Virus record (IMG/VR): IMGVR_UViG_2718218100_000014
Source of the DNA: a virus
Taxonomy: Duplodnaviria; Heunggongvirae; Uroviricota; Caudoviricetes
Reading direction: 5' to 3' (one strand)
Length of the DNA stretch: 38,484 nucleotides
In this document: positions 33,001 through 36,000 of the stretch, piece by piece
How positions within the stretch are numbered: position 1 is the first letter of the stretch
Layout: each line of letters starts with the position of its first letter
Position numbers: made by a program

Positions 33001-36000
33001 GGCAGCATGACACCGGACATTATCCTGCAGCGTACCGGGATCGACGTGAGAGCTGTCGAACAGGGGGATGATGCATGGCACAAATTACGGCTCGGCGTCA
33101 TCACCGCTTCAGAAGTTCACAACGTGATAGCAAAGCCCCGCTCAGGAAAGAAGTGGCCTGACATGAAAATGTCCTACTTCCACACCCTGCTGGCTGAGGT
33201 TTGCACCGGTGTGGCTCCGGAAGTTAATGCTAAGGCGCTGGCCTGGGGAAAACAGTACGAGAACGACGCCAGAACCCTGTTTGAATTCACTTCCGGCGTG
33301 AATGTTACTGAATCCCCGATCATCTATCGCGACGAAAGTATGCGCACCGCCTGCTCTCCCGATGGTTTATGCAGTGACGGCAACGGCCTTGAGCTGAAAT
33401 GCCCGTTTACCTCCCGGGATTTCATGAAGTTCAGGCTCGGTGGTTTCGAGGCCATAAAGTCGGCTTACATGGCCCAGGTGCAGTACAGCATGTGGGTGAC
33501 GCGAAAAGATGCCTGGTACTTTGCCAACTATGACCCGCGTATGAAGCGTGAAGGCCTGCATTATGTCGTGGTTGAGCGGGATGAAAAGTACATGGCGGGT
33601 TTTGACGAGATGGTGCCGGAGTTCATCGAAAAAATGGACGAGGCACTGGCTGAAATTGGTTTTGTATTTGGGGAGCAATGGCGATGAAGCATCCTCACGA
33701 TAATATCCGCGTAGGCACGATCACTTTCGTCTACTCCGTTACGAAGCGAGGCTGGGTATTTCCCGGCCTTTCTGTTATCCGAAATCCGCTGAAAGCCCAG
33801 CGGCTGGCTGAGGAGATAAATAATAAACGGGAGGCGATATGCACAAAGCATCTCCTGTTGAGTTAAGAACGAGTATTGAGATGGCACATAGCCTTGCTCA
33901 AATTGGAGTCAGGTTTGTGCCAATACCAGTAGAAACAGACGAAGAATTTCATACGTTAGCCACATCCCTTTCGCAAAAGCTGGAAATGATGGTGGCGAAA
34001 GCAGAAGCAGATGAGAGAGACCTGGTATGACAACCACTGAATGCATTTTTCTGGCAGCGGGCTTCATATTCTGTGTGCTTATGCTTGCCGACATGGGACT
34101 TGTTCAATGACACCTCAGCAAGAAAACGCCCTTCGCAGTATTGCCCGTCAGGCTAATTCTGAAATCAAAAAAGCCAGACAGCCGTTTCCGGATAAAAACG
34201 TCGATGACATTTGCCGTAGCGTACTGAAGAAGCACCGCGAAACGGTAACGCTGATGGGATTCACACCGACTCACTTAAGTCTGGCAATCGGCATGTTAAA
34301 CGGCGTCTTTAAGGAACGGTGAACATGAAAAGCAAAATCATCAGGGAGCTACAGGCTCCTTTTTTATTATTCGCATTCACCCTCAAGCGTATTAACCAAC
34401 AATTCAGGGATTAATGGAAGATGGCAGACATCATTGATTCAGCATCAGAAATTGAAGAATTACAGCGCAACACAGCAATAAAAATGCGCCGCCTGAACCA
34501 CCAGGCTATATCTGCCACTCATTGTTGTGAGTGTGGCGATCCCATAGATGAGCGAAGACGCCTGGCCGTTCAGGGTTGTCGGACTTGTGCAAGTTGCCAG
34601 GAGGATCTGGAACTTATCAGTAAACAGAGAGGTTCGAAGTGAGCGAAATTAACTAGAAGCCAAAGATAAAATCATCGCTGAGCAGGAGAAAATCGCTAAC
34701 GGAGAAAAGACAGTAAGTCAGTATATGAAAACCGCATGATATCATCAGATAAAAATCGATCGTAAAGCGAAATATTAATACCAGAATAAACGAGTCGAGG
34801 TAAATTATATTACCTCGATAAATTAACTAAAACTTGCCCGCTATATACTATCTCATTCAGTATCATCACGCGCGGTCTGTGCATATGTTACTACCGCACC
34901 TAATGTATTAATTTTCTTTTCAACATAGATAATATTATCGTACTCATAATTGCCATACGGATAGCAAATGCGAATATTCTCATGTAGATCGGGGTCATCC
35001 ACCTCAGCTCCAGAACAACTTTTTGAACTACCGGAAGTATACCGATACGGTGCAACATAAGACGATGTCTCTCCAGGCAAAAAATAAGTTAGTGTTGTAA
35101 GGGGTATAATCAGAAAAAATCCAGCAAATATGCACATCCCTGCATAAACCTTAAGGTATGCTGACAGACTCTTCCAGCCGCTTTGTTTTACTATCCCCTT
35201 CTTAACCCAAAACAGAGATAACAGAAAAGCTATTCCCATGCTAAACAGAATGTAATAGTGGGATATACTCTGATTAAGAAACGTGACCCTGTAAATATCT
35301 GCCCGCCACCAGAAGAAAAGGAAAATAAAGATCAGGCCTAAAACTGTCATGCAAATCAAATAAGGATACGAATCTTTTTTCATGTTTAGCGCCCATAAAA
35401 TTTTTCCTGCCCCGGACAAATTTACCATCCATTTTTTGCGCAGAAAATAGCTCATTACTTACTGCACAATAATACACAAAATTGCGTAAATTTTTTGCAT
35501 GGATTTTAGCTCTTTCAGCCGACGTTTAAGGGGTAAATAGCATTTCCTAAAAGCAACTGCACCAACCCAACAGAATGAGCTACCGCTTACGTTGAGAGCA
35601 AAAAAGTGTATAGCAGCAATGAACAGCATCCTCGCACTGACGAGGATTTCTTTTATCTGAACTCGCTACGGCGGGTTTTGTTTTATGGAGATGATAAATG
35701 CACTTCCGAGTCACAGGTGAATGGAATGGAGAACCATTCAACAGAGTTATCGAAGCAGAGAACATCAATGACTGCTATGACCACTGGATGATATGGGCGC
35801 AGATAGCACATGCAGACATAACCAATATTCGAATTGAAGAACTGAAAGAACACCAAGCCGCCTGATGGCGGCTTTTTCTTGCGTGTAATTGCGGAGACTT
35901 TGCGATGTACTTGACACTTCAGGAGTGGAACGCACGCCAGCGACGCCCAAGAAGCCTTGAAACAGTTCGTCGATGGGTGCGCGAATGCAGGATATTCCCT

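Follow-up and report, generated by a model that had tools for sequence, protein, structure and literature searches.

The locus and the gene model

The window analyzed here is a 38,484-nucleotide stretch of tailed-phage DNA (Caudoviricetes; IMG/VR record IMGVR_UViG_2718218100_000014), and the subject of the analysis is a small gene on its minus strand that encodes a predicted membrane protein. The original prediction, made by a model from the sequence alone, placed this gene at 34853-35455, opposite to the flanking early-left genes. An open reading frame (ORF) of 200 amino acid residues is indeed present on the minus strand at 34853-35455, antisense to the exo...xis genes, and the same ORF is annotated in E. 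coli O157:H7 by the Prokaryotic Genome Annotation Pipeline (PGAP) as WP_000120056.1. It corresponds to ECs_0804 (ECs0804) of prophage Sp3 in strain Sakai and to gp36 of phage 434 (CPT_434_36, "putative membrane protein"), whose region is 99.6% identical to the window. The local gene order is truncated bet, exo, DUF1317, DUF1382, a hypothetical gene, a TraR-like zinc-finger gene (34421-34642), the membrane-protein gene, orf55 (35698-35865), xis, and a split int.

The reading frame was upheld by comparison with homologues, which favored 35383 over 35455 as its start. Homologues with 42%–79% identity are 169–180 residues long, and every one of them starts at the equivalent of Met25 of the 200-residue ORF, with the sequence MKK(D/Y)SYPYL. 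The full 24-codon extension upstream of this methionine was found in 61 of the 65 copies of the 434 type, which are 98%–100% identical, and in none of the 40 other copies. All 40 of these have an in-frame stop codon 1–84 codons upstream, at a distance of 1–19 codons in 37 cases, and an in-frame ATG before that stop is lacking in 37 of the 40. Because the distant homologues all start at this position, the frame cannot be extended in the other copies, and a conserved -10 element lies inside the first 13 annotated codons, the true start is almost certainly at 35383. The gene would then span 34853-35383 on the minus strand (ATG at 35383-35381, TGA at 34855-34853) and encode 176 residues. The in-frame extension of the PGAP model (35384-35455, minus strand), which holds the conserved -10 and -35 elements described below, is probably 5′ untranslated region plus promoter and not coding sequence.

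The start is preceded by a weak Shine-Dalgarno sequence in the window allele, and gene calls for the family vary between 200, 188 (phage 434), 176, 112, and ~90 residues. The PHROG 1416 profile, which has 90 positions, matches only residues 113-200 of the 200-residue model (E = 2e-50), and the 112-residue product called by other pipelines uses an internal GTG start that follows a strong Shine-Dalgarno-like run, GAGGGGGG. We regard the 188-residue model of phage 434, the ~90-position PHROG 1416, and the 112-residue E. coli calls as start-calling artefacts, the conserved protein being 176 residues long. PGAP also labels a P2-type allele as "frameshifted" in E. coli O103 ML775 and 2014C-3655 (loci L113, 407-982, and L114, 397-972). 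Where the DNA of this allele was compared, from the promoter to about codon 90, it does not differ from that of the intact allele, and its 531-nt frame has the right length. The label is thus probably an artefact of a PGAP reference that is the over-long 200-residue protein.

An autonomous cassette with a predicted promoter and terminator

The strongly AT-rich composition that had been ascribed to the gene was confirmed: the GC content of the ORF is 0.386, compared to 0.498 for the window, and its GC3 is 0.375, compared to 0.634 for exo. A blastn comparison delimited a mobile cassette at 34763-35520 (minus strand). An E. coli P88/P2-like prophage (locus L092) holds a copy with 76% DNA identity to this stretch, and weaker alignments were obtained for several Salmonella and other P2-like lineages. 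The shared unit extends from ~140 nt upstream of the ATG to ~90 nt beyond the stop codon and includes a terminator hairpin. Its GC content is 0.372, compared to 0.496 in the neighboring exo...TraR genes.

Upstream of the gene, a predicted extended -10 element, TGgTAAATT, is located at 35419-35427 (minus strand), 36 nt before the ATG in the window and at a similar distance in other loci. The T, G, T, and A columns of TGnTAAATT are invariant in an alignment of 8 diverged upstream regions, taken from the lambda-like copy, four P2-like lineages, and the Cedecea chromosome. A weak -35-like hexamer, TTTTCT (35442-35447, minus strand), lies 17 nt upstream of the -10 element and is kept in the window and in four other loci (L092, L099, L004, and L005). 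A generic sigma-70 promoter scan did not report this conserved extended -10 promoter because its -35 element is poor.

The original prediction had the gene bounded by hairpin terminators on both sides. On the downstream side this was correct, as an intrinsic-terminator-like hairpin with a perfect 9-bp stem and a 6-nt loop (-12.9 kcal/mol, z = -3.9) is located at 34795-34818, on the gene's own strand and 35 nt past its stop codon. The P2-type copy in L092 keeps this hairpin with one wobble pair and one mismatch. The proposed upstream hairpin (35855-35874) is also real (z = -3.9) and GC-rich, but it lies 400 nt upstream of the start, overlaps the stop codon of orf55 (35865), and precedes a pI-type TTGC-N6-TTGC site at 35879-35892. 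Since it follows immediately after orf55, which is on the other strand, it would terminate orf55 and does not bound the membrane-protein gene. The hairpin nearest to the gene on its upstream side is located at 35628-35647 (plus strand; z = -3.0 by scan and fold). This is the tL4 terminator of the early-left (pL) transcript, labeled t-L4 in the 434 record M60848.

A moron is an independent promoter-gene-terminator unit in a phage genome (PMC3594210). Judged from its sequence, the cassette has a promoter and a terminator of its own, its base composition deviates from that of its surroundings, and it is present or absent among homologous phages and horizontally exchanged. There is thus strong support for regarding it as a moron, that is, opposite-strand, AT-rich accessory cargo that encodes a membrane protein. 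The classical morons in the HK97/lambda sense (bor, lom, and HK97 gp15) are likewise autonomous units of deviant composition that lie between conserved phage genes and are horizontally exchanged. The membrane protein is unrelated to the products of these genes, and its expression from the repressed prophage is a prediction. The only statement on morons in the 434 genome announcement is that those of 434 differ from those of lambda.

Distribution of the gene and footprints of its transfer

A 1.2-kb region containing the gene is covered to at least 80% in 903 of 5,426 complete E. coli genomes. The same region occurs in phages 434, 2B8, and mEp332 and in every O157 Sp3/CP-933K prophage examined, but of 277 phage records with matches to the flanks of the gene, only 5 carry it. 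Among 80 IMG/VR loci, 64 are of the 434 type, and nearly all of these have the gene between the TraR-like gene and orf55/xis where the contig reaches that far. The other 16 loci belong to P2-like phages (45%–79% identity) and all lie beside gpA. In 14 of the 16, the gene is located between the portal gene Q and gpA, ~540–950 nt after the portal gene and convergent with gpA, and the Salmonella homologues P0044 and P0048 occupy the same portal-gpA position. This slot is where P2 carries old and tin. The proposal that the gene is accessory cargo of the exo-xis region is therefore borne out, since it lies in a self-contained cassette that is present or absent in related lambdoid phages and that recurs at the old/tin hotspot of P2-like phages. 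In P88-like prophages, the cassette shares this hotspot with a StbA (ParM-like)/Plasmid_stab_B partition module (L092, 9069-10344), which is system #1 and the commonest at the P2 hotspot, with 4592 occurrences (Table S5B, PMC9122126).

The taxonomic range of the family is narrow, and a relative is present in only 9 of 185,579 species-representative genomes. A syntenic, non-prophage chromosomal locus with the order LysR-gene-GGDEF-AI-2E holds the gene in at least five Enterobacter species. The Klebsiella orthologue lies between a phosphotransferase system (PTS) operon and a LysR gene, and the Cedecea and Pseudescherichia orthologues adjoin an SBP_bac_5 gene. The Cedecea locus may be a decayed island because a 24%-identical integrase-like fragment is located just downstream. 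No conserved partner gene was found across the phage and chromosomal contexts, where the gene always occurs as a single gene.

The window copy carries a P88-type backbone footprint upstream of the gene despite its lambda-like location. In P2-like loci, decamers of the type ATTGTGCA(G/A)T are found upstream of the gene in 2–4 tandem copies with an exact 10-bp period. These P88-type (Peduoviridae) decamers sit between the portal gene and the hotspot cargo and also occur in phage P88, which lacks the gene (L109, 2615-2650), and in L099 (7884-7925). Their counterpart in the window consists of three tandem decamers (TTTACGCAAT / TTTGTGTATT / ATTGTGCAGT-like) at 35459-35489 (minus strand), and the repeats are degenerate in this lambda-like copy. 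When the P2-type region was used as query, 586 E. coli genomes matched, only 143 of them over >80% of the query. The sampled partial matches cover just the first ~63 nt, which are backbone, so about three-quarters of the 586 are essentially backbone only. A second, cos-proximal backbone stretch of the P88 type is located at 35516-35577 (minus strand; blastn, 75% over 63 nt to L092). On the other side of the cassette, a 28-codon remnant of an Ead/Ea22-like gene (LEAKDKIIAEQEKIANGEKTVSQYMKTA; 34653-34739, plus strand) matches an Ea22-like ORF in L092 by blastn. It is convergent with the membrane-protein gene and occupies the slot between the TraR-like gene and the cassette, and the intact neighbor in P88-like loci is annotated as "ead/Ea22-like family protein". 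We take lambda ea22 to lie at the position equivalent to this remnant. On the simplest reading of these footprints, the cassette reached the ea region of the 434 type from a hotspot of the P2/P88-like kind.

The decamers are annotated in the 434 record as a CII site (TTGY-N6-TTGY). We rejected this site as a regulator of the gene, since it is a P88-like backbone repeat that is also present without the gene. The motif TTGT-N6-TTGT (35478-35465) lies upstream of the -35 element and not across it, and so does not correspond to CII-activated promoters of the pRE, pI, or paQ type. No known regulator could be assigned to the TTGTGCA decamers by inspection; a packaging site, a regulator-binding site, and a recombination hotspot at the cargo junction are candidate roles. 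A 56-residue ORF at 35459-35629 (minus strand), annotated in 434 as a "putative membrane protein" (CPT_434_35), was considered as a partner gene and dismissed. It overlaps the tL4 hairpin, its DNA is homologous to non-coding P88 backbone, and it was found only with the 434-type copy, being absent from non-lambda contexts; it is probably not a gene.

Conservation and predicted structure of the protein

The gene is real and under purifying selection, as seen from sequence comparisons. The ratio of nonsynonymous to synonymous substitution rates (dN/dS) is 0.08–0.15 between phage-borne copies and 0.27–0.35 between the Enterobacter orthologues, and the ORF is intact in 102 of 105 loci. The gene is thus not absent or disrupted in most relatives, and no homology to a known non-defence protein was found, the two outcomes that would have spoken against the original prediction. 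In most comparisons, the C-terminal domain is more conserved than the transmembrane (TM) region (e.g., 86% compared to 74% identity, and 72% compared to 51%). Across 25 sequences, which extend to Proteus, Providencia, Erwinia, and Pseudomonas and down to 24% identity, Cys123, Cys140, and Gly162 are the sole invariant residues (176-residue numbering, used from here on).

Three or four TM helices had been proposed, and both hydropathy and AlphaFold settled on three. The hydropathy segments span residues 9-27, 43-61, and 79-102. The first TM helix (35303-35359; this and the following features are on the minus strand) reaches a Kyte-Doolittle window mean of up to 2.33 and corresponds to an AlphaFold helix at residues 5-29. 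The second (35201-35257) corresponds to a helix at residues 38-61, and the third (35078-35149), placed by hydropathy and charge, to a helix at residues 70-101. The N-terminus is basic, and loop 2 between TM2 and TM3 (residues 62-78), which is predicted to be cytoplasmic, is rich in lysine and arginine, with a mean of 4.1 K+R per 17 residues in 18 homologues. The last 74 residues have a net acidic character and include exactly two cysteines.

In the AlphaFold2 models, three long helices are combined with a five-stranded β-domain, and loop 1 contains a short strand. The full-length model has a predicted local distance difference test score (pLDDT) of 87.6 and a predicted template modeling score (pTM) of 0.72, and the C-terminal domain modeled alone has a pLDDT of 90.9. 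Taken together, the models and the charge distribution suggest an N-in, C-out protein with three TM helices and a periplasmic five-stranded β-barrel of ~74 residues (residues 103-176; 34856-35077). The loop-1 strand in the full-length model is consistent with loop 1 and the C-terminal domain lying on the same side of the membrane, and the conserved loop 1 is predicted to pack onto the periplasmic barrel. The two invariant cysteines, Cys123 (35017-35015) and Cys140 (34966-34964), would form a disulfide bond within the barrel. The C-terminal domain had been described as rich in both cysteine and tyrosine; with nine tyrosines and only two cysteines, it is Tyr-rich but not Cys-rich.

Comparison with known families

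Remote homology searches, the check proposed with the original prediction, matched no characterized family. Among Pfam families only DUF6057 appeared, at E = 0.32, and no NCBIfam family was found. The only PHROG was family 1416, of unknown function, and a profile search of all PDB sequences gave nothing below E = 0.37. An exhaustive profile search of 1.84 billion representatives yielded 61 clusters, all unnamed, from Enterobacterales and a few Pseudomonas. A repetitive 3074-residue match from this search (P0123) looked spurious on a Pfam check. The MliC/PliC lysozyme inhibitors, a lead suggested by an SxSGA motif, were ruled out by an hhalign comparison with E. coli MliC, which detected no homology beyond the SxSGAxY loop motif. 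In summary, neither sequence nor fold matched a characterized family, including SieA, MliC, PADLOC, Pfam, and PDB. The closest known systems also include DUF1093 membrane-anchored barrels and the short NfeD proteins (YbbJ/YuaF), in which three TM helices are followed by a C-terminal OB-like barrel. Phage 434 gp36 and PHROG 1416 represent the same gene and family, with no function assigned to either.

The family has been catalogued once. Rousset 2022 showed that the gpA-gpQ locus of E. coli P2-like phages is rich in anti-phage systems and lists in Table S5B, without a note, a "System #4" that is made up of one protein, with no Pfam domain and three TM helices (470 occurrences; PMC9122126). These account for 470 of the 18,150 P2-hotspot loci (PMC9122126). 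The representative of System #4 is the ORF of locus L103, which is 49%–51% identical to the window protein over residues 1-168. Both are single genes without a Pfam domain, and both carry the signature SCSGA.VDDPDL...ICYP.G.Y...V.KR.N.LG.VV. They differ in location, as the window copy lies in the exo-xis (ea) region of a lambda-like prophage and not between gpA and gpQ.

A further comparison is with P22 SieA, an inner-membrane superinfection-exclusion protein of 162–164 residues with three predicted TM helices, a promoter of its own from which the prophage expresses it, and an uncertain start codon, for which a single gene is sufficient (PMC10883804). The window protein resembles SieA in size (~160–180 residues), in having three TM helices, in its own, here predicted, promoter, in the uncertain start, and in being encoded by a single gene. 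However, predictions place the conserved motif of SieA in the cytoplasm, whereas the conserved module of the window protein is a predicted periplasmic, disulfide-bonded β-barrel. Moreover, the function of SieA is proven and that of the window protein is inferred.

Possible function

The location of the gene and the architecture of its product make it a good candidate for blocking infection by other phages. Transcription would start at the gene's own extended -10 promoter (35427-35419) and end at its own hairpin (34818-34795). With this promoter, transcription would be independent of pL, and the product would be made constitutively in the lysogen. The 176-residue protein would act at the periplasmic face of the inner membrane. 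There, its β-barrel would bind a partner that is itself conserved and that is either a component of the host envelope or the apparatus with which incoming phages deliver their genomes. Infection would thereby be blocked at a step after adsorption, resulting in superinfection exclusion. Binding to a conserved host component or to a conserved feature of the entry machine is favored because the periplasmic domain is conserved and not diversifying.

We consider superinfection exclusion at the inner membrane or in the periplasm the most likely role, with a probability of roughly 0.4, and it is location and architecture from which this proposal of a defence function is drawn. It fits the occurrence of the cassette at two accessory loci, one of which is experimentally rich in exclusion and defence genes, the single-gene arrangement, the lack of a catalytic motif, and the SieA-like size, TM content, and promoter. 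We hold a more specific form of this proposal somewhat more tentatively. In this form, the product would be a new single-gene superinfection-exclusion or defence protein, in which a three-TM anchor displays a disulfide-locked periplasmic barrel, which occupies a conserved inner-membrane or periplasmic host factor and so blocks genome entry, and the gene would be among the commonest cargoes of the lambda ea and P2 old/tin loci.

Several observations weigh against exclusion. The promoter, the topology, and the disulfide bond are predictions, and the conservation of the putative interaction domain, which is not diversifying, argues against direct recognition of fast-evolving phage proteins. None of the defence models of PADLOC-DB 2.0 was matched at E ≤ 1. 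Homology to P22 SieA was rejected by hhalign (probability 0.2%), and the FxRYPxEAxxFNK motif was absent from the alignment. The literature search found no mention of ECs0804 or WP_000120056 and no experimental data on the family. System #4 is catalogued but unnamed, and DNA of the family was not among the constructs tested in Rousset 2022 (PMC9122126). The P2 hotspot also holds cargo unrelated to defence, such as partition systems and the cdt toxin (PMC9122126). Finally, orthologues lie at syntenic, non-prophage chromosomal loci in at least five Enterobacter species and in Klebsiella.

Together with the very conserved periplasmic domain, these chromosomal orthologues point to a possible non-phage envelope role. 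The protein could be a lysogenic-conversion or envelope-physiology factor not aimed at phages, whose barrel binds a host envelope component or neutralizes a toxin that acts in the periplasm; phages would then carry the gene because the lysogen benefits. We regard this main alternative as possible but doubtful, counting together its conceivable forms, which include orphan immunity to a colicin or to an effector of the type VI secretion system, an inhibitor of O-antigen or peptidoglycan enzymes, and a modulator of stress or virulence. The vertical inheritance of the syntenic Enterobacter orthologues and the position of the Klebsiella and Cedecea/Pseudescherichia copies among housekeeping genes agree with such a role, as do the strong conservation of the periplasmic domain under purifying selection, the presence of virulence and maintenance cargo in the P2 hotspot, and the richness in tyrosine that, as far as sequence can tell, the domain shares with many glycan binders. 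On the other hand, none of the searches connected the protein with an immunity, inhibitor, or glycan-binding family, linked toxin or enzyme genes were absent from all contexts seen, and phage-borne copies dominate numerically and occupy positions enriched for anti-phage genes.

The prophage-borne location in a hotspot would also suit a RexB- or SieB-like membrane effector of abortive infection, a latent pore or depolarizer that kills the infected cell when triggered, and small multi-TM proteins are the usual effectors of membrane-acting systems of this type (noted in PMC9122126). Such an effector is unlikely here, as the gene stands alone without a sensor partner in the contexts seen, conservation is highest in the folded periplasmic domain and not in the TM helices, the gene is stably maintained as a chromosomal orphan, and PADLOC gave no match. 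A function in the lytic cycle and not in the prophage, for example in regulating lysis or DNA entry to the advantage of the phage itself, is more improbable still. The early-left location and the CII-type motif that the 434 annotators placed upstream would be in line with it, but the gene is antisense to the pL operon, is intact in a prophage that lacks pL, N, and the immunity region, and also occurs at non-phage chromosomal loci; moreover, the "CII" motif TTGT-N6-TTGT is a P88-backbone repeat that is also found in phages without the gene. That the ORF is spurious or non-functional and merely hitch-hikes in an AT-rich spacer might be suspected from its lack of a function and of a Pfam family, its weak Shine-Dalgarno sequence, and the inconsistent gene calls. 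This suspicion is effectively refuted by the selection and conservation data, namely a dN/dS of ~0.1, a cysteine pair invariant down to 24% identity, and 102 intact copies out of 105, alongside a confident AlphaFold fold.

The existence of the ORF is not new, as it is annotated as hypothetical everywhere and was catalogued once without comment. What the present analysis adds is a gene model corrected to 176 residues, a confident predicted fold and topology, the sharing of one mobile cassette, with its transfer footprints, between the lambda ea region and the P2 old/tin hotspot, and the narrow taxonomic range of the family together with its chromosomal orthologues. The gene is very common, its region being found in about one of every six E. 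coli genomes and also in the textbook phage 434, yet it has neither a name nor a Pfam family. The shared cassette, the corrected model, and the predicted fold turn an anonymous ORF into a directly testable hypothesis, for which 434 lysogens are ready reagents. Should the protein exclude phages, it would be a new architecture among the few known inner-membrane exclusion proteins and could lead to a host factor that genome entry requires; otherwise, the chromosomal orthologues suggest that phages have borrowed an envelope function. An unknown membrane moron will not surprise a specialist, but this one is a worthwhile lead because it is abundant, is carried by 434, and can be tested easily.

The surrounding prophage

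In the annotation of a 100% identical region of TR01, bet (window ~31350-33010) is missing its N-terminal part and directly adjoins opposite-strand genes of the ninE/ninF/ninG type. The pL/N/immunity/replication block is absent from the annotated stretch between bet and the nin genes. With this block deleted, the exo-xis genes lost their normal promoter. In this defective prophage, the membrane-protein gene therefore probably has no route of expression other than its own promoter.

At the other end (36101-38484), int is split by an insertion sequence (IS) of the IS3 family (~36165-37480). The int reading frame begins at 36101, and the 256 codons of its C-terminal part continue from 37714. The element carries an HTH_Tnp_1 orfA (37094-37420) and an rve orfB (36207-37097), both on the minus strand, and is presumably IS629-like. 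The int gene of Sakai Sp3 is also a pseudogene but has no IS at this spot. The prophage of the window probably cannot excise.

The TraR-like gene at 34421-34642 (plus strand) encodes a TraR/DksA-type C4 zinc finger (TIGR02419, E = 6e-15) and lies 744 nt from the start of the membrane-protein gene in every non-rearranged locus of the 434 type. It gave a weak PADLOC match to a model of type II methyl-directed restriction enzymes (E = 0.0065), which probably reflects just the zinc finger. A 252-residue ORF without a Pfam match is located at 27423-28181 (minus strand) and is the positional counterpart of Sp3 ECs_0816, a "membrane protein". It is presumably the gene that the original prediction counted as the first membrane protein of the window. 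The nin/Q region contains another opposite-strand cargo gene, at 29514-30473 (plus strand), which is a full-length gene for the lipid A 3′-O-deacylase LpxR (Pfam LpxR, E = 7e-40) and corresponds to lpxR in Sakai.

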